A DNA stretch of 64,000 bases from Escherichia coli (GTDB taxonomy: Bacteria > Pseudomonadota > Gammaproteobacteria > Enterobacterales > Enterobacteriaceae), in the NCBI RefSeq assembly GCF_003334315.1, contig NZ_QOWR01000024.1; one strand, given 5' to 3'. The notes beneath the pieces are model-generated. The model saw only the letters and a list, made by a program, of their open reading frames with translations, had not been told where the DNA came from and did not search any database. Each line of letters opens with the position of its first letter. The stretch's first letter is position 1. The translations under genes were made by a program, and so were the position numbers. Below, piece by piece: positions 8,818 through 58,198 of this stretch.

Positions 8818-8912
8818 GTTATCCGTTCTTTAAAAATAAGGAAATGTTTTAATTTAGTTGGTAGATTGTTGATGCGGAATAAATTTGTTTAAAACAGTTA
8901 TGTATGCTTAGT
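8818..8912 (+). promoter_or_regulatory. CRISPR leader (AT-rich), contains the array promoter and probable IHF-bending region
   Basis: About 95 bp of AT-rich sequence between the cas2 stop and the first repeat, the standard I-E leader position. Confidence 0.75.
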
Positions 8913-9429
8913 GTGTTCCCCGCGCCAGCGGGGATAAACCGGAGCGTAGAGATTCTCGAAACCGATCCGGACGGTGTTCCCCGCGCCAGCGGGGATAAAC
9001 CGAATAAATAATAATCCAGTAGCCCCATGTATTAGTGTTCCCCGCGCCAGCGGGTATAAACCGGTAATAAAAAATATTCTATTTCTGCTGAATCAGTGTT
9101 CCCCGCGCCAGCGGGGATAAACCGCTTGCGAGCAAAAGATCCAGGCCGAGAAAGACGTGTTCCCCGCGCCAGCGGGGATAAACCGCGATAACCGCGTCAG
9201 TATTGGACAGGATATCAGTGTTCCCCGCGCCAGCGGGGATAAACCGAATCTATTGTGAATTTGAAATGGTCCAGCACTGTGTTCCCCGCGCCAGCGGGGA
9301 TAAACCGGGTAAAAACACGGTCTGAACCGACATTCATGTGTGTTCCCCGCGTCAGCGGGGATAAACCGGGCGCACTGGATGCGATGATGGATATCACTTG
9401 GAGTTCCCCGCCCCTGCGGTAGAACTCCC
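8913..9429 (+). CRISPR. Type I-E CRISPR array: 9 repeats of 29 bp (last one degenerate) and 8 spacers of 32 bp
   Basis: Repeat GTGTTCCCCGCGCCAGCGGGGATAAACCG at 8913, 8974, 9035, 9096, 9157, 9218, 9279, 9340 with a strict 61-bp period; repeat 3 has GGGTATAAACC, repeat 8 has GCGTCAGC; terminal degenerate repeat GAGTTCCCCGCCCCTGCGGTAGAACTCCC at 9401-9429. Spacers at 8942-8973, 9003-9034, 9064-9095, 9125-9156, 9186-9217, 9247-9278, 9308-9339, 9369-9400. Confidence 0.97.
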
Positions 9430-18313: not shown

Positions 18314-19453
18314 ATGAGCGCGGGAAGCCCAAAATTCACCGTTCGCCGCATTGCGGCTTTGTCACTGGTTTCGCTATGGCTGGCAGGCTGTTCTGACACT
18401 TCAAATCCACCGGCACCGGTCAGCTCCGTTAATGGCAATGCGCCTGCAAATACCAATTCTGGTATGTTGATTACGCCGCCGCCGAAAATGGGGACGACGT
18501 CTACAGCCCAGCAACCGCAAATTCAGCCGGTACAGCAGCCACAAATTCAGGCTACTCAACAACCGCAAATCCAGCCAGTGCAGCCAGTAGCTCAGCAGCC
18601 GGTACAGATGGAAAACGGACGCATCGTCTATAACCGTCAGTATGGGAACATTCCGAAAGGCAGTTATAGCGGCAGTACCTATACCGTGAAAAAAGGCGAC
18701 ACACTTTTCTATATCGCCTGGATTACTGGTAACGATTTCCGTGACCTTGCTCAGCGCAACAATATTCAGGCACCATACGCGCTGAACGTTGGTCAGACCT
18801 TGCAGGTGGGTAATGCTTCCGGTACGCCAATCACTGGCGGAAATGCCATTACCCAGGCCGACGCAGCAGAGCAAGGAGTTGTGATCAAGCCTGCACAAAA
18901 TTCCACCGTTGCTGTTGCGTCGCAACCGACAATTACGTATTCTGAATCTTCGGGTGAACAGAGTGCTAACAAAATGTTGCCGAACAACAAGCCAGCTGCG
19001 ACCACGGTCACAGCGCCTGTAACGGTACCAACAGCAAGCACAACCGAGCCAACTGTCAGCAGTACATCAACCAGTACGCCTATCTCCACCTGGCGCTGGC
19101 CGACTGAGGGCAAAGTGATCGAAACCTTTGGCGCTTCTGAGGGGGGCAACAAGGGGATTGATATCGCAGGCAGCAAAGGACAGGCAATTATCGCGACCGC
19201 AGATGGCCGCGTTGTTTATGCTGGTAACGCGCTGCGCGGCTACGGTAATCTGATTATCATCAAACATAATGATGATTACCTGAGTGCCTACGCCCATAAC
19301 GACACAATGCTGGTCCGGGAACAACAAGAAGTGAAGGCGGGGCAAAAAATAGCAACCATGGGTAGCACCGGAACCAGTTCAACACGCTTGCATTTTGAAA
19401 TTCGTTACAAGGGGAAATCCGTAAACCCGCTGCGTTATTTGCCGCAGCGATAA
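18314..19453 (+). CDS. nlpD: Lipoprotein NlpD, LysM/M23-peptidase-family divisome amidase activator (379 aa)
   Basis: Lipobox (LAGCS), Q/P-rich repeats, LysM segment and C-terminal M23-like domain; contains the rpoS promoter region in E. coli. Confidence 0.93.
18509..18575 (+). repeat. In-frame tandem repeat inside nlpD encoding (QQPQIQ) x3
   Basis: Three near-identical units of about 21-24 bp (cagcaaccgcaaattcagccggta / cagcagccacaaattcaggct / caacaaccgcaaatccagcca). Confidence 0.7.
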
Positions 19454-43271: not shown

Positions 43272-43678
43272 GTGAAAAGGTGGTGTTCAGTCAACTGAGC
43301 CGTAAATTTATTGATGAGAACGATGCCACGCCCGCCGAGGCGCAGCAGGTGGTCTATTACAGCCTGGCGATTGGTCACCACCTTGGGGTTATCGATTGCC
43401 TGGAAGCGGCGCTCACCTGCCCGTGGGATGAATATCTGGCATGGATTGCCACTCTGGAGGCAGGCAGTGAAGCCCGCCGCAAAATGGAAGGCGTGCCGAA
43501 ATATGGTGAGATCGTCATCGACATTAACCATGTGCCGATGCTGGCCAACGCATTCGATAAAGCCCGGGCAGCGCAAACTTCGCAGCAGCAGGAATGGAGT
43601 ACAATGCTGTTAAGTATGCTGCATGATATTCATCAGGAAAACGCCATCTATTTGATGGTGAGGAGACTGCGTGACTGA
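43268..43678 (+). CDS. hycH: FHL maturation protein HycH (136 aa)
   Basis: Conserved position; 4-nt overlap with hycG. Confidence 0.9.
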
Positions 43679-44141
43679 CGTTTTACTCTGTGTTGGCAAT
43701 AGCATGATGGGCGATGATGGCGCAGGTCCGCTGCTGGCGGAAAAGTGCGCCGCCGCGCCGAAAGGTAACTGGGTGGTGATTGACGGCGGTAGCGCACCGG
43801 AAAACGACATCGTCGCTATCCGTGAACTGCGCCCGACACGACTGCTGATTGTCGACGCCACGGATATGGGGCTAAACCCCGGCGAGATCCGCATCATCGA
43901 CCCGGATGATATCGCCGAGATGTTTATGATGACTACCCATAACATGCCGTTGAATTACCTTATCGACCAGTTGAAAGAAGATATTGGCGAAGTGATTTTC
44001 CTCGGCATTCAGCCGGATATCGTCGGCTTTTACTACCCGATGACCCAGCCGATTAAAGATGCGGTAGAAACCGTTTATCAACGACTGGAAGGCTGGGAAG
44101 GAAATGGCGGCTTCGCGCAGTTAGCGGTGGAAGAAGAGTAG
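43671..44141 (+). CDS. hycI: Hydrogenase 3 maturation endopeptidase HycI (156 aa)
   Basis: N-terminus [20 protein letters not shown] is typical of hydrogenase maturation proteases. Confidence 0.93.
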   Translation: MTDVLLCVGNSMMGDDGAGPLLAEKCAAAPKGNWVVIDGGSAPENDIVAIRELRPTRLLIVDATDMGLNPGEIRIIDPDDIAEMFMMTTHNMPLNYLIDQLKEDIGEVIFLGIQPDIVGFYYPMTQPIKDAVETVYQRLEGWEGNGGFAQLAVEEE

Positions 44142-44211
44142 TTTTTCATTAAGGAATCAGGACAGGGATGTTCTTGATGGGGTGAACCAGCTCTGATGCC
44201 AAATGCTAAAT

Positions 44212-44292
44212 TGCCCGATGCGCTGCGCTTATCGGGCCTTCATGGTTCGTGCGACATGTAGGCCGGATAAGGCGTTCACGCCGCATCCGGCA
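44212..44292. repeat. REP/BIME element (two REP palindromes) between hycI and ascB
   Basis: gcccgatgcgctgcgcttatcgggcc and gtaggccggataaggcgttcacgccgcatccggca, the canonical REP consensus (GCCGGATAAGGCGTT...). Confidence 0.85.
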
Positions 44293-44299
44293 CTGTTAC

Positions 44300-47190
<2,891 letters not shown>

Positions 47191-47273
47191 CGGATTTTAT
47201 CCTGTTATCAGTAGGGTAGATGTAGTTGTTATCAGTCGACGTGACGGAAAAATGCCGATGCTGAAACGGAATT

Positions 47274-47289
47274 AAGAAACCGGTTTCAC
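47274..47289. promoter_or_regulatory. AscG-type operator palindrome in the ascF-ascG divergent promoter region
   Basis: Perfect 12-bp palindrome GAAACCGGTTTC at 47276-47287; a related half-site TGAAACCGGTCAC lies at 47351-47363. Confidence 0.6.
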
Positions 47290-47449
47290 AAAATCATGAA
47301 TAGTTGTCACTAAATAAGCAAGAGAGTGAATTGTTCATTTTTTATATTTGTGAAACCGGTCACCTGAATATTTTTCCCGCCGATTGTGCAAGGACAATCG
47401 GCAAACGGTGCAGTACACTGCGTTGATTGCGTGTAAAGGGATGAAAATG

Positions 47450-48460
47450 ATGACGACGATGCTGGAAGTGGCGAAGCGCGCCGGGGTTTCAAAAGCGACC
47501 GTTTCCCGCGTGCTTTCAGGTAATGGCTACGTCAGCCAGGAGACTAAAGATCGCGTGTTTCAGGCGGTAGAAGAGAGCGGTTACCGTCCAAACTTGCTGG
47601 CGCGCAATCTGTCGGCGAAGAGTACTCAGACGCTGGGGCTGGTAGTGACCAACACGCTTTACCACGGCATTTATTTTAGTGAATTACTCTTTCATGCCGC
47701 GCGAATGGCGGAAGAGAAAGGGCGGCAGTTGCTATTGGCAGATGGTAAACACAGCGCAGAAGAAGAGCGCCAGGCGATTCAGTATCTGCTGGATCTGCGC
47801 TGCGACGCGATCATGATTTACCCGCGTTTTTTAAGCGTGGATGAGATCGATGACATCATTGACGCGCACAGTCAGCCGATAATGGTGCTTAATCGCCGCC
47901 TGCGCAAAAACAGCAGCCATAGCGTCTGGTGCGATCATAAACAGACCAGTTTTAACGCCGTGGCAGAGTTGATAAACGCCGGGCATCAGGAGATTGCTTT
48001 CCTTACCGGCTCGATGGATTCCCCCACCAGCATTGAACGTCTTGCCGGGTATAAAGACGCGCTGGCGCAGCATGGTATTGCGCTCAATGAAAAACTTATC
48101 GCTAACGGTAAATGGACGCCTGCCAGCGGGGCCGAAGGGGTAGAAATGTTGCTCGAACGTGGGGCTAAATTTAGCGCGTTAGTTGCCAGTAACGACGATA
48201 TGGCGATAGGTGCGATGAAAGCGTTACACGAGCGCGGCGTAGCGGTGCCAGAGCAGGTGTCAGTTATCGGATTCGATGATATCGCTATTGCCCCCTACAC
48301 CGTTCCGGCGCTCTCCAGCGTAAAAATTCCGGTGACTGAGATGATTCAGGAAATTATTGGACGGCTGATTTTTATGCTCGATGGCGGGGATTTCTCACCG
48401 CCGAAAACCTTCAGCGGAAAACTGATCCGCCGCGACTCACTCATTGCTCCTTCGCGATAA
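47450..48460 (+). CDS. ascG: LacI/GalR-family repressor AscG (336 aa)
   Basis: N-terminal HTH (MLEVAKRAGVSKATVSRVL) and periplasmic-binding-protein-like effector domain; reading frame intact. Confidence 0.93.
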   Translation: MTTMLEVAKRAGVSKATVSRVLSGNGYVSQETKDRVFQAVEESGYRPNLLARNLSAKSTQTLGLVVTNTLYHGIYFSELLFHAARMAEEKGRQLLLADGKHSAEEERQAIQYLLDLRCDAIMIYPRFLSVDEIDDIIDAHSQPIMVLNRRLRKNSSHSVWCDHKQTSFNAVAELINAGHQEIAFLTGSMDSPTSIERLAGYKDALAQHGIALNEKLIANGKWTPASGAEGVEMLLERGAKFSALVASNDDMAIGAMKALHERGVAVPEQVSVIGFDDIAIAPYTVPALSSVKIPVTEMIQEIIGRLIFMLDGGDFSPPKTFSGKLIRRDSLIAPSR

Positions 48461-48608
48461 ACATTGTCATCACATGTCATCGTCACTAGTGTCGATGACA
48501 TCGTTTTTCCTGCATTACAGAAATTAATTTCCTTAAATAACAGTAAATTAAAAACTGGCATGATTTGTGAATGTATCGGCGCATTAACTGTCATTGCTGG
48601 AGAATTTG

Positions 48609-49136
48609 ATGAACCGTTTCATCATTGCTGACGCGAGTAAATGTATTGGTTGCCGTACCTGTGAAGTAGCGTGCGTGGTTTCTCATCAGGAAAATCAGGA
48701 TTGTGCATCGCTGACCCCGGAAACTTTTTTACCGCGTATCCATGTCATTAAAGGTGTGAACATTTCCACGGCGACAGTTTGCCGTCAGTGTGAAGATGCA
48801 CCGTGCGCTAACGTCTGCCCGAATGGTGCTATCAGCCGTGATAAAGGGTTTGTTCATGTGATGCAGGAACGTTGCATTGGTTGCAAAACCTGCGTTGTGG
48901 CTTGCCCGTATGGTGCGATGGAAGTGGTGGTACGTCCGGTGATCCGCAACAGCGGCGCGGGTCTGAATGTACGGGCTGACAAAGCCGAAGCCAATAAATG
49001 CGACCTGTGCAACCATCGTGAAGACGGCCCGGCGTGTATGGCGGCTTGCCCGACTCATGCGCTGATTTGTGTCGATCGTAATAAACTTGAACAACTGAGC
49101 GCAGAAAAACGCCGCCGTACGGCGCTGATGTTCTAA
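48609..49136 (+). CDS. hydN: Formate dehydrogenase-H associated ferredoxin-type electron transfer protein HydN (175 aa)
   Basis: Four Cys clusters of 4Fe-4S type; [23 protein letters not shown]-terminus. Confidence 0.93.
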
Positions 49137-49288
49137 AAATCTTACAGAACTGTTCTGGCATCAAAGGAATTCCCGGAAATATTCGTAGAATACGGAGCGG
49201 GCGGTATCGCCGACCTGTGACTGCCGGATGCGACGCTGTCGTGTCCGGCAGGGCGGGTTACGCAATTCATGATGGCGGGAATAACTCA

Positions 49289-51541
49289 ATGGCAAAAAAC
49301 ACATCTTGCGGTGTCCAACTGCGTATTCGTGGCAAAGTGCAGGGCGTCGGTTTTCGTCCGTTTGTCTGGCAGCTGGCACAGCAATTAAATCTTCACGGCG
49401 ATGTCTGTAATGACGGCGATGGCGTAGAAGTCCGGCTGCGGGAAGACCCGGAAACGTTTCTTGTTCAATTGTATCAGCACTGCCCGCCGCTGGCGCGTAT
49501 TGATAGCGTCGAGCGTGAGCCGTTTATCTGGTCACAACTGCCCACCGAGTTCACTATACGCCAGAGCACAGGCGGCACCATGAATACGCAAATTGTTCCC
49601 GATGCCGCTACTTGCCCTGCTTGCCTTGCCGAAATGAATACCCCAGGCGAACGGCGTTATCGTTATCCGTTTATCAACTGTACCCACTGCGGCCCGCGTT
49701 TCACCATTATTCGCGCCATGCCTTACGACCGCCCGTTTACCGTGATGGCGGCGTTTCCGCTATGTCCGGCCTGTGACAAAGAGTACCGTGACCCGCTCGA
49801 TCGTCGCTTCCACGCCCAGCCGGTGGCCTGCCCGGAGTGTGGCCCGCATCTTGAATGGGTAAGTCATGGTGAACATGCGGAACAAGAGGCGGCATTACAG
49901 GCAGCTATCGCACAGTTAAAAATGGGCAAAATTGTCGCCATCAAAGGGATTGGCGGATTTCATCTTGCCTGCGATGCACGTAACAGTAACGCGGTGGCGA
50001 CACTTCGGGCGCGCAAACATCGCCCGGCGAAACCGCTGGCGGTCATGTTGCCAGTGGCTGACGGTTTACCAGACGCTGCGCGCCAGTTGCTTACCACGCC
50101 CGCCGCGCCGATTGTGCTGGTGGATAAAAAATACGTTCCTGAGCTTTGTGATGATATCGCCCCTGACCTTAACGAAGTCGGGGTAATGTTGCCTGCGAAC
50201 CCGCTCCAGCATTTGCTGTTACAGGAACTGCAATGCCCGCTGGTGATGACCTCCGGCAACCTGAGCGGTAAACCACCAGCTATCAGCAACGAACAGGCGC
50301 TGGCGGATTTGCAGGGCATTGCCGACGGATTTTTGATACATAACCGCGACATCGTGCAGCGGATGGATGATTCGGTGGTGCGCGAAAGCGGCGAAATGCT
50401 GCGCCGTTCGCGGGGGTATGTGCCGGATGCGCTGGCTTTGCCTCCGGGCTTTAAAAATGTTCCGCCTGTGCTGTGTCTCGGCGCGGATCTGAAAAATACC
50501 TTCTGCCTGGTGCGCGGTGAACAAGCGGTGTTGAGTCAGCATCTGGGCGATTTAAGTGACGATGGCATCCAGATGCAGTGGCGCGAAGCGTTACGCCTGA
50601 TGCAAAACATCTACGATTTCACCCCGCAATACGTTGTGCATGACGCACATCCGGGCTATGTCTCCAGCCAGTGGGCGCGCGAAATGAATCTGCCGACGCA
50701 AACGGTGCTGCATCATCATGCCCACGCAGCGGCGTGTCTGGCAGAGCATCAGTGGCCGCTGGATGGCGGTGATGTCATTGCTTTGACGCTCGACGGTATC
50801 GGTATGGGGGAGAATGGCGCTTTGTGGGGCGGCGAGTGCCTGCGGGTGAACTATCGCGAATGTGAGCACCTGGGCGGCTTGCCTGCAGTGGCGCTTGCTG
50901 GTGGCGATTTGGCGGCGAAGCAGCCGTGGCGAAACCTGCTGGCGCAGTGCCTGCGCTTTGTGCCGGAGTGGCAGAATTATCCCGAAACAGCGAGTGTGCA
51001 ACAGCAAAACTGGAGCGTGCTGGCGCGGGCCATTGAGCGTGGAATTAACGCGCCGCTGGCGTCATCGTGTGGGCGTTTTTTCGATGCAGTGGCGGCGGCA
51101 CTGGGCTGTGCGCCAGCCACGTTAAGTTATGAAGGTGAAGCGGCTTGTGCTCTGGAGGCGCTCGCAGCCTCATGCCACGGAGTGACGCATCCGGTGACAA
51201 TGCCGCGGGTGGACAATCAACTGGATCTCGCCACTTTCTGGCAGCAGTGGCTGAACTGGCAGGCACCGGTTAATCAACGCGCGTGGGCGTTTCATGATGC
51301 GCTGGCGCAGGGTTTTGCCGCGTTGATGCGTGAGCAGGCCACGATGCGTGGTATCACTACGCTGGTATTTAGCGGCGGGGTTATTCATAACCGTTTGCTG
51401 CGTGCACGTCTGGCGCATTATCTCGCTGATTTCACATTGCTCTTTCCACAGAGTTTACCGGCGGGTGATGGCGGTTTGTCTCTGGGGCAGGGGGTTATTG
51501 CTGCGGCGCGTTGGTTAGCGGGTGAAGTCCAGAACGGATAA
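49289..51541 (+). CDS. hypF: Carbamoyltransferase HypF (hydrogenase maturation, 750 aa)
   Basis: Acylphosphatase-like N-terminus ([18 protein letters not shown]), two Zn-finger CxxC pairs, YrdC-like and Kae1-like domains; start at MAKNTSCG (the track is extended 24 codons). Confidence 0.95.
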
Positions 51542-51564
51542 AACGTGTTGCATTTGGACACCAT

Positions 51565-51648
<84 letters not shown>

Positions 51649-51668
51649 TTTTAGGCACAGTAGCCCAC

Positions 51669-52802
51669 CTACATCGGCAATGTTTTCAACAATCCAAATG
51701 CCTCTTTCATCCGATCCTCACTGACCACAAAGGCGCGAAGCTGGTCAGCATCGTCAACGCCGCGCGCCACCATTCCCTGGCGTTCGGTATTAATTTGCCA
51801 GCGTAAATCCTGACGCTGGGTTTCGCCTGCCAGATGCAGCGGTAATTCCGGCGTTTTGATTTTCACCAGCATCGCCGGGAGTTTCAGCGGCGTGTTATTG
51901 CCGAGAAGATTTTTTGCCAGCACCATCGCGCTAAGTTGAATCGGCTGGAGGAACGGCAATACCTGACCGTTAATTTCCGCGCAATCGCCCAGCGCGTAAA
52001 TATCGGTATTACTGGTTTGCAGATAACTATCGACGCAAACGCCGCGATTAATCGTCAGCCCGGCGCGTCGTGCCAGGGCGGTTTCCGGGCGCAGTCCGGT
52101 GGCGGCAATTACCGCATCCACTTCGATATTGCGCTGGCGGTCCAGCGTTGCCTGAATGCCAGAATCCGTTTTTTCCAGCCCCTGTAACTGAGATTTCAAC
52201 AGCAGATGAACGCCCATCTCCGTCAACCGATGCTGCAAGCGGCTGCTTACTTCCGGTGGCATTAACGACGCCAGAATACTGGCAGCGTTGTCGATTAGCG
52301 TGACCGCTTTGCCTGCACGACAAAAATCCATCGCCAGTTCGCTACCAATCAAACCACCGCCAACAATCAACACGCGTCGGGCATCCCGCAGTTGCGTTTC
52401 ACAGGCGCGATACTCTTGCTGACTATTTAACGTCAGCATTAACTCACGCCCAGGCACAGGCGGGACAAAGGCACTGGCACCGGTTGCCAGTACTAGCTTG
52501 TCGTATTGCCACTGATTATTCTGGCTTTTCACCACACGGGCTTCGGCATCGATATCCGTCACCCAGGTTTGTGGAAACAGGTGCAGATTAAACTGCTCGG
52601 CAAATTCACCCGCCGTCTGGCGGGTAAGGTCATCGGCACGTTGCCCCTGACTGATAACATGGCTGATGTCAGGTTTGTTGTACTCATCCATGCTGTCGGC
52701 GGCAATCAAGGTTAATGGAATAGTGGCGTCCTGTTTGCGAATATTTTTCACCAGTTGTCGGGCGGCGAAGCCCGAACCAATGATCACAATGCCGTTGCTC
52801 AT
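51669..52802 (-). CDS. norW: NADH:flavorubredoxin reductase NorW (377 aa)
   Basis: FAD/NAD Rossmann motifs ([22 protein letters not shown]). Confidence 0.95.
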
Positions 52803-54238
52803 TTTGCCTCCGATGCCAGTTCGTCAAAGACGTCTTTGCCGAGGGAGCATTCCGGGCAGAGGAAGTTATCCGGAACTTCACTCCACGGCGTTCCTGGCGC
52901 AACGTCCTGCATTGGCTCGCCTTTTGCCGGATCGTAAATCCACTGGCAGACGCTGCACTGCATCCGTGGGCCGAGGTCAGCCGTCGTGGTGGCAGAGGTT
53001 TCTTCTTTAACCACCGAATTCACCGTGCTCTGCGGCAGCGGCGCGAGCGCCCACTGACGGGCGATTTCGCGACCGTGTTCACGGCATAACTCCAGAGCGT
53101 CCTGGTCTGGTCGCCATTTGGCTTTCAGGCTGAGCGACATTTCGAAACCCGCATCCTGCAGGCGCGTGGAAAGACGATCCACCGCACCGCCGCTCCAGCC
53201 GTGAGATCCGAAAGCACTGGCGCGTTTGTTACGGAAGCGTAATCCGGTCATCTCCTCCACCAGCCCGGCGATTTTCGGCATCATCACGTTATTCATCGTC
53301 GAAGTGCCGACCAGCACGCCTTTTGAGCGGAAGACATTGGTCAGGATTTCGTTTTTATCGCTTCGGGCGACGTTGAAAATTTTCACCGCCACGCGTGGGT
53401 CGGTTTCCGCAATTCCCTGGGCGATAGCGTCAGCCATCATGCGGGTGTTATTCGACATGGTGTCGTAGAAAATGGTGATTCTGTCTTCCTGATAATCAGC
53501 CGCCCATTTCAGGTACAGCTCGACAATTTGCGTCGGGTTATCGCGCCATACCACGCCGTGGGAAGTGGCTATCATATCGACTGGTAAGTTAAAGCCCAGG
53601 ATCTCGGTAATTTTCGGCGTTACCAGGCGGCTGAACGGCGTCAGGATATTGGCGTAGTAACGTTGGCACTGCTCGAAAAGCTCCGTCTGATCCACTTCAT
53701 CGTTGAACAGATGCTCGTCGCAGTAGTGCTGACCGAAAGCATCGTTACTGAACAGCACCGCGTCGCCTGTCAGGTAAGTCATCATGCTGTCCGGCCAGTG
53801 CAGCATTGGTGTTTCGACAAAAATGAGCTGTTTGCCGTTGCCGATATCCAGCGTGTCGCCAGTTTTCACCACATTAAAATTCCACTCCGGATGATGGTGA
53901 TGACCATTTATCGAGTCGATAGCGTTGGCAGTACAGTAGATCGGCGTATCGGGAATTTGTGCCATCAGTTCGGTCAGCGCCCCAGCGTGGTCCTCTTCTG
54001 CATGGTTAATCACGATGTAATCGATATCCGCCAGATCGATTTCATTACGCAGGTTCTGCACAAATTCGCGGCTGAATTTATGGTCGACGGTGTCGATCAG
54101 CACGTTTTTTTCTTCGCGGATGAGGTAGCTATTGTAGCTGCTGCCGCGCAGCGTTTTATATTCCGTGCCGTGAAAATCACGCACTTCCCAGTCACGTTGA
54201 CCAACCCAATGAATGTTATTTTTCACCACAATAGACAT
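52799..54238 (-). CDS. norV: Anaerobic nitric oxide reductase flavorubredoxin NorV (479 aa)
   Basis: Metallo-beta-lactamase-like diiron domain (HAEEDHAG), flavodoxin domain and C-terminal rubredoxin (CxxC...CPxC). Confidence 0.95.
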
Positions 54239-58093: not shown

Positions 58094-58198
58094 AACTTTT
58101 CCTTAATGTAGTGGCGGAAGTCCTGTAGGCCTGATGAGCGTAGCGCATCAGGCATTCTATTAGTCTCACGGAGATCCTTAACGGATCTCCGCTGTTGA

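Follow-up and report, generated by a model that had tools for sequence, protein, structure and literature searches.

REP/BIME elements at two convergent gene ends in the hyc-asc-hydN-hypF-nor region of Escherichia coli

Stabilisation of mRNA is established for REPs in general, and catalogues of REP/BIME elements in E. coli K-12 go back decades; the copies described here behave as that literature predicts. REPs are also reportedly the target of the insertion sequence IS621, as Choi is said to have described in 2003. The definitions of REPs and BIMEs that we follow, including the division of E. coli REPs into types y, z1 and z2, come from a study in which the RayT protein was found to cleave and recombine BIMEs in vitro and to need, for binding, an AA-opposite-GC mismatch or bulge in the stem (PMC3333891). 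Two arrangements are most relevant to this locus. BIME-2 elements join y and z2 REPs in inverse orientation with their tails facing across a short linker and occur as tandem units whose number varies, and BIME-1 elements (also called RIP or RIB) are single copies of y and z1 REPs that enclose a long L motif with an IHF site. Published effects of such elements include gyrase cleavage, which is enriched in a subset of BIME-2 elements and mostly at y REPs (PMC6379681), and lowered translation of an upstream gene when a REP lies fewer than 16 nt after its stop codon, a result of Liang (2015) as cited in another article (PMC12306157). For IS621, a member of the IS110 family, both the bridge RNA and the target are known, and the REP target is given as ATCAGGCCTAC / ATCGGGCCTAC (PMC11208160).

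The window, by which we mean the whole 64-kb stretch of DNA that was analysed, contains the E. coli hyc-asc-hydN-hypF-nor region. A 9.3-kb part of it (43600-52900) is found unchanged (100% identity) in E. coli strain 14EC001 and at 99.8% identity in K-12, where the genes of the stretch are hycI, ascB, ascF, ascG, hydN, hypF, norW and norV. A first-pass annotation placed canonical REP palindromes at 44212-44292 and 51565-51648, and both are indeed there as paired BIMEs at convergent junctions. At site 1, hycI on the plus strand ends at 44141 and faces ascB on the minus strand, which ends at 44300 (stop codon 44300-44302). At site 2, hypF on the plus strand ends at 51541 and faces norW on the minus strand, which ends at 51669 (stop codon 51669-51671). 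These are the only spacers in the region at which two transcription units converge. The K-12 RefSeq record has no repeat features in the hycI-norV stretch, and a search of the whole 64-kb window with Rfam at gathering thresholds returned no match. The features are collected in Table 1.

Table 1. Coordinates of the REPs, their linkers and associated features in the window
Feature	Position	Strand	Remarks
z1-type REP, site 1	44212-44241	-	4 errors vs z1 consensus; 34.0 bits, E 2.2e-7
Linker between site-1 REP tails	44242-44257	.	16 nt; no IHF consensus
y-type REP, site 1	44258-44292	+	0 errors vs y consensus; 58.3 bits, E 3.5e-14
y-type REP, site 2	51565-51599	-	1 mismatch; 58.8 bits, E 2.5e-14; plus strand reads TGCCGGATGCGGCGTAAACGCCTTATCCGGCCTAC
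Linker between site-2 REP tails	51600-51611	.	12 nt
z2-type REP, site 2	51612-51648	+	4 errors vs z2 consensus; 50.3 bits, E 6e-12
Single z1-type REP between srlD and gutM	58125-58154	+	1 error; 35.2 bits, E 1e-7
REP-head-like perfect hairpin without CTAC tail, hydN-hypF spacer	49223-49249	+	19.3 bits, E 0.003
32-nt islet remnant, a deletion scar	44165-44196	+	100% identical to L004 1509-1540, 3' end of hypothetical gene
Spurious 79-aa ORF with RPDKAFTPHPA	44203-44442	+	through y REP, antisense into ascB 3' end
Spurious 74-aa ORF with RPDKAFTPHPA	51418-51642	-	through y REP, antisense into hypF 3' end

Both sites hold ordinary REPs of the E. coli family, imperfect palindromes of about 35 nt that are paired in head-to-tail-inverted fashion as BIMEs. 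Read on the plus strand, site 1 consists of TGCCCGATGCGCTGCGCTTATCGGGCCTTC, the linker and GTAGGCCGGATAAGGCGTTCACGCCGCATCCGGCA; its z1 REP has the GTAG-first orientation on the minus strand. Site 2 consists of TGCCGGATGCGGCGTAAACGCCTTATCCGGCCTAC, the linker and GTAGGTCGGATAAGACGCGCCAGCGTCGCATCCGACA. The 34-nt y consensus GCCGGATGCGGCGTGAACGCCTTATCCGGCCTAC matches positions 44258-44291 on the minus strand without mismatch and positions 51566-51599 on the plus strand with one, and the number of matches expected by chance is 0 (100 shuffles). The site-2 y copy, which in K-12 lies at about 2,835,050-2,835,170, is moreover identical at 35/35 positions to the y sequence that Durrant et al. 2024 give in their Methods (PMC11208160). 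When the y, z1 and z2 consensus sequences were scanned with up to 6 errors allowed, exactly five REPs were found in the 64 kb, all of them extragenic.

The first-pass annotation had proposed a search with REP models as a check. For this purpose we used a covariance model, R1, built from 18 independent K-12 REPs taken from three 50-kb pieces distant from the locus. In the alignment of these 18 REPs, 96.9% of the stem cells are paired, sliding the partners lowers this to 27-40%, and covariation is seen at two pairs. With filters off, R1 aligned the five window REPs end to end at 34.0-58.8 bits (E 2.5e-14 to 2.2e-7), and all five stand out from the background. Beyond the five REPs and the hairpin in the hydN-hypF spacer, every R1 hit over the 64-kb window has E > 0.5. 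The family is present in high copy: E. coli genomes have a median of at least 29-39 places that match, and 19 REPs were found in 150 kb of K-12 sequence elsewhere. The rayT gene lies outside the window; in K-12 it is located at 247637-248134 and is flanked by y+z2 pairs.

The window copies resemble the described y, z1 and z2 types (PMC3333891) in palindrome, mismatch or bulge, foot, extragenic site and copy number, and they differ from their type consensus at 0-4 positions. They are 30-37 nt long. The stem mismatch GGAT-AA-GGCG / CGCC-GC-ATCC is found in both y copies and in the z2 copy, and the z1 copies have an AA bulge. Where the z1 and z2 copies depart from their consensus within stems, the changes are compensatory (C:G for T:A, T:A for C:G and G:C for T:A); the z2 REP of site 2 has two such changes, and the stem of the site-1 z1 REP has a T>C / A>G change that is compensatory on reading the sequence. 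Folding of both strands at both sites gave -41 to -50.6 kcal/mol, with z-scores of -3.0 to -5.5 relative to shuffled sequences. A GTAG/CTAC foot is present in 4/5 copies (the y REPs at 44258 and 51565, the z2 REP at 51612 and the z1 REP at 58125). The exception is the site-1 z1 REP at 44212, in which the family-conserved CTAC is replaced by CTTC (GAAG on the complement) in the window and in K-12 alike, whereas other Escherichia alleles have CTAC. Because this copy has neither CTAC nor GTAG, RayT would not be expected to bind it on its own strand by the rules established in vitro (PMC3333891).

Two features were missing from the first-pass list, namely the full REP at 58125-58154 and the REP-like hairpin at 49223-49249. 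The genes that flank the former, srlD and gutM, are co-directional and belong to the glucitol operon. The latter is a hairpin of 14 bp that resembles the head half of a z2 REP and folds with -29.6 kcal/mol (z -5.1). In Citrobacter and Salmonella the hydN-hypF spacer is occupied by a full y+z1 pair, and the hairpin, which lies inside the hydN-hypF operon, is therefore probably what remains of a REP that has decayed.

With regard to classification, site 2 agrees with BIME-2 in having a y REP on the minus strand and a z2 REP on the plus strand, in inverse orientation with tails facing across the 12-nt linker. The window carries one such unit and other strains carry more, and on this arrangement site 2 is classed as a single-unit BIME-2. 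Site 1 agrees with BIME-1 in being a single copy of y and z1. However, it has a 16-nt linker in place of the long L motif with an IHF site, and a scan with the IHF consensus WATCAANNNNTTR found no match in or near either BIME. A canonical BIME-1/RIP at site 1 was ruled out on the latter result, and, given the short linker and the lack of the IHF consensus, site 1 is best called an atypical y+z1 BIME on the basis of its sequence.

Both junctions are polymorphic, and the arrangement seen in the window is kept in only about half of the 5426 complete E. coli genomes at either site. At site 1, the contiguous form of the window (>=80%) was recovered in 2704 of the 5426. Many E. coli strains carry an islet of 0.7-1.7 kb between hycI and the site-1 BIME (L003 767-2429, L088 1407-2652 and L089 4229-4956, with 44162-44211 as the window counterpart). 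Three products are encoded there: a HigB-family toxin with a match to PADLOC PD-Lambda-2_A (E 1e-15), an HTH protein that aligns with PD-Lambda-2_B over the N-terminal part of the latter (E 2e-14), and a hypothetical protein of about 250 aa. Neither the window nor K-12 has the islet, and the 32-nt segment that both retain (Table 1) is its deletion scar. Smaller changes affect the BIME itself: loci L004 and L006 lack the 16-nt linker, and L089 lacks the y REP. The linker also occurs in two orientations. Its window sequence is ATGGTTCGTGCGACAT, which is inverted to ATGTCGCACGAACTAT at L088 3985-4002. The inverted form belongs to the IS621-bearing allele described below and to its empty form; the window orientation is found in K-12, E. 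albertii and Escherichia sp. L012.

REPs had been described by the first-pass annotation as hotspots for IS insertion, and site 1 confirms this. In strain FWSEC0008, a 1279-bp IS621 (L088 2706-3984) interrupts the tail of the z1 REP at site 1, exactly after ATCGGGCCT. The insertion point is ATCGGGCC^T, within the CT core of the z1 tail, and its window equivalent is 44239/44240. By eye, the 5' end of this IS621 corresponds to the wild-type bridge RNA of Durrant et al. The same junction with the site-1 z1 REP is present in 1215 of the 5426 complete E. coli genomes (~22%). The reconstructed empty site, in which the z1 tail is ATCGGGCCTAC, is matched exactly (100% identity) by at least 30 genomes, and 462 records match it at >=99%. 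In other strains, the z1 tail allele ATCGGGCCTAC matches the target loop of the bridge RNA at 11/11 positions; the window allele ATCGGGCCTTC matches the 11-nt target ATC(A/G)GGCCTAC at 10/11, is empty and has the linker in the opposite orientation. Insertion of IS621 at a perfect bridge-RNA target is a common part of the polymorphism.

A further proposal would be that the site-1 z1 REP serves as a preferred 'home' site of IS621, with the allele of the window and K-12 being resistant or with the flipped linker being a footprint of recombination. We regard this as rather improbable. The idea draws on the 11/11 match of the CTAC allele and its occupancy by IS621 in about 22% of complete E. coli genomes, and, in the BL21(DE3) insertion map, ATCGGGCCTAC is reported at only two sites (PMC11208160). 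The supplements of Durrant 2024 (PMC11208160) contain no mention of ascB, hycI, hypF or norW. If the linker was flipped by recombination between the inverted REP tails, the event could have been mediated by IS621 or by RayT, or it could reflect template switching in the palindrome. What might be considered mildly new is how commonly IS621 sits in the fully matching z1 target here, and that the inverted linker goes with it. The polymorphism may be of interest to those who use IS621 or who type strains.

At site 2, the single-unit form (>=80%) was found in 3058 of the 5426 genomes, a count that includes a few two-unit forms. Loci L002, L005 and L006 carry an extra unit composed of a degenerate y REP and a z2 REP, and Escherichia sp. 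L012 has four REPs at this site. In HCP5S3_I2 (L087 3880-4010), a hairpin (CCCTCGCCC...GGGCGAGGG) takes the place of the site-2 BIME and the last codons of hypF; it resembles a repeat of another type, putatively boxC-like. The variation at the two sites is the behaviour that has been described for BIMEs (PMC3333891) and for insertion sequences that seek REPs (PMC11208160, PMC1525189).

We favor the view, with a probability of roughly 0.88, that these are ordinary REP/BIME elements at convergent gene ends whose roles are inferred from other REPs and which do not border an inserted block. At the level of RNA, the G+C-rich hairpins, or a long hairpin between y and z REPs, would give the hycI, ascB, hypF and norW transcripts their 3' structure, and by analogy such hairpins may slow 3'-to-5' exonucleases and thereby stabilise the upstream message. 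The distances from stop codon to REP are 7 nt for ascB, 20 nt for norW, 23 nt for hypF and 70 nt for hycI. Only the first of these is shorter than 16 nt, and the y REP that follows ascB might lower AscB translation in the manner reported for other genes. Since asc is annotated as cryptic in K-12, such an effect on AscB may matter little. At the level of DNA, the y REP of the site-2 BIME-2 could offer a preferred gyrase site where convergent transcription builds positive supercoils. Finally, REPs would be substrates of the RayT/TnpA-REP transposase and of REP-seeking insertion sequences, the activity of which would account for the variation from strain to strain. The RNA, translation and gyrase roles at these two sites are extrapolations from REPs studied elsewhere.

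It might instead be that the elements are selfish or neutral passengers that RayT has copied and reshuffled and that are tolerated at convergent ends, with no selected role at either locus, whether for RNA, translation or supercoiling. This is a possibility to which we give some weight, while considering it clearly the lesser one. At convergent ends the REPs disrupt no promoters, RayT is active on BIMEs in vitro (PMC3333891), structural polymorphism is high among the 5426 E. coli genomes, and whole REPs or a whole BIME have been lost in some strains. Indeed, the absence of the y REP in L089 and the replacement of the site-2 BIME in L087 mean that the elements are not essential. The type of REP at the ascB end also differs among genera. 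Against this stands the position of these structures. An E. coli-type REP head lies no more than 15 nt from the ascB stop codon in 13 of 50 asc-positive loci, which come from other species and genera, and most of the remaining loci have, by inspection, another strong G+C-rich palindrome about 5-12 nt after the stop, whether a genus-specific REP, a boxC-like element or a simple hairpin. That a palindrome is kept at this place while the kind of element varies suggests a positional role. In addition, neither junction has another terminator-like structure; a hairpin followed by a T tract, as in an intrinsic terminator, was found on neither strand of 44142-44299 or 51542-51668, and the REP hairpins at both sites have no T runs after them. 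Effects of REPs at other loci have also been published (PMC6379681, PMC12306157). A different reading of the same DNA, that the ORFs passing through the y REPs are real small protein genes, has next to no chance of being correct. Both begin with ATG and stay open for 74-79 codons. However, the peptide RPDKAFTPHPA that they share is the exact translation of the y REP in one frame, and outside this peptide the two products are unrelated. Each ORF overlaps the 3' end of a conserved gene on the opposite strand, RefSeq has no gene at either place in K-12 or the other strains examined, and the DNA that encodes the peptide is present in dozens of spacer copies per genome. The two ORFs, which the first-pass annotation had rightly attributed to the REPs, can be removed from consideration.

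The same annotation also took the presence of the two BIMEs as consistent with an insertion of the asc-hydN-hypF block between the hyc and nor loci, of which the BIMEs would be the borders. Some observations are in keeping with this idea. One BIME does lie at hycI/ascB and the other at hypF/norW, the presence of asc varies among Escherichia and other genera, and BIMEs near strain-specific loops have been reported (PMC1525189). Nevertheless, synteny, remnants of asc, base composition and the REP-free border between ascG and hydN all contradict it, and we consider it very unlikely. We compared the HypF locus with its 10-kb flanks in 80 enterobacterial species by placing the window proteins on each. 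The order hycI-ascB-ascF-ascG-hydN-hypF-norW-norV, with the same orientations, is that of most of the 80 species and is common to many genera, among them Citrobacter, Klebsiella, Raoultella, Kluyvera, Kosakonia, Enterobacter, Phytobacter and Pseudocitrobacter, as well as Superficieibacter, Yokenella, Trabulsiella and Lelliottia. In other species asc is absent and hydN-hypF still follows hycI, as is the case for Salmonella arizonae and diarizonae, E. albertii, E. whittamii, some Citrobacter, Intestinirhabdus, Buttiauxella and Serratia. The comparison with asc-less relatives that had been suggested as a check therefore points to ascGFB alone as the variable unit, since hydN-hypF comes after hycI in every locus that has both. 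The other border of ascGFB, the ascG/hydN spacer of 136-167 bp, contains no REP in any locus of the 80-locus scan. Furthermore, hypF and norW are also adjacent in Salmonella, Citrobacter and Kosakonia, and GC content stays at 0.50-0.59 across the region with no step.

Within E. coli the picture is similar. The whole stretch (>=80% in one place) is present in 4694 of the 5426 complete genomes; at most 732 (~13%) are without the contiguous stretch, and those sampled lack only ascGFB. The parts concerned are 44350-48455 in the window and 1061-2650 in L002. The asc-less strain 2/0 (L002) has kept 51 bp from the 3' end of ascB together with half of the y REP, and next comes what appears by inspection to be a diverged 3' end of ascG. 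In E. albertii, the z1 and y REPs are kept together with a remnant of the ascB 3' end. These remnants, in the one asc-less E. coli examined and in E. albertii, indicate that asc was lost there by deletion from an asc-positive ancestor and that the loci are not empty sites. The data thus do not support the notion that the REPs delimit a horizontally inserted asc-hydN-hypF block, and the evolutionary scenario is corrected to an indel of ascGFB that has been deleted in some lineages. At most, asc may have been gained deep in the family at a position between hycI and hydN, not between the REPs.

Asc-less strains carry an 83-bp filler that was considered as foreign DNA. It has no significant blastn match; it is probably not foreign and, as judged by inspection of its likeness to ascG, would consist of a diverged ascG 3' end and, after it, a normal ascG-hydN spacer. 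Extra DNA of other kinds is found elsewhere along the region. About 2.2 kb lies between hydN and hypF in Kluyvera, Kosakonia, Phytobacter, Buttiauxella and others (L024-L038 among other loci), and 1-5 kb lies between hypF and norW in many genera (L026-L049).

Two additional repeats were noticed in the window. A CRISPR array at 8897-9374 has 8 copies of GTGTTCCCCGCGCCAGCGGGGATAAACCG at a spacing of 61 nt. At 18509-18584, three in-frame 24-nt tandem repeats resemble CAGCAACCGCAAATTCAGCCGGTACAGC and probably represent a Gln/Pro-rich coding repeat.
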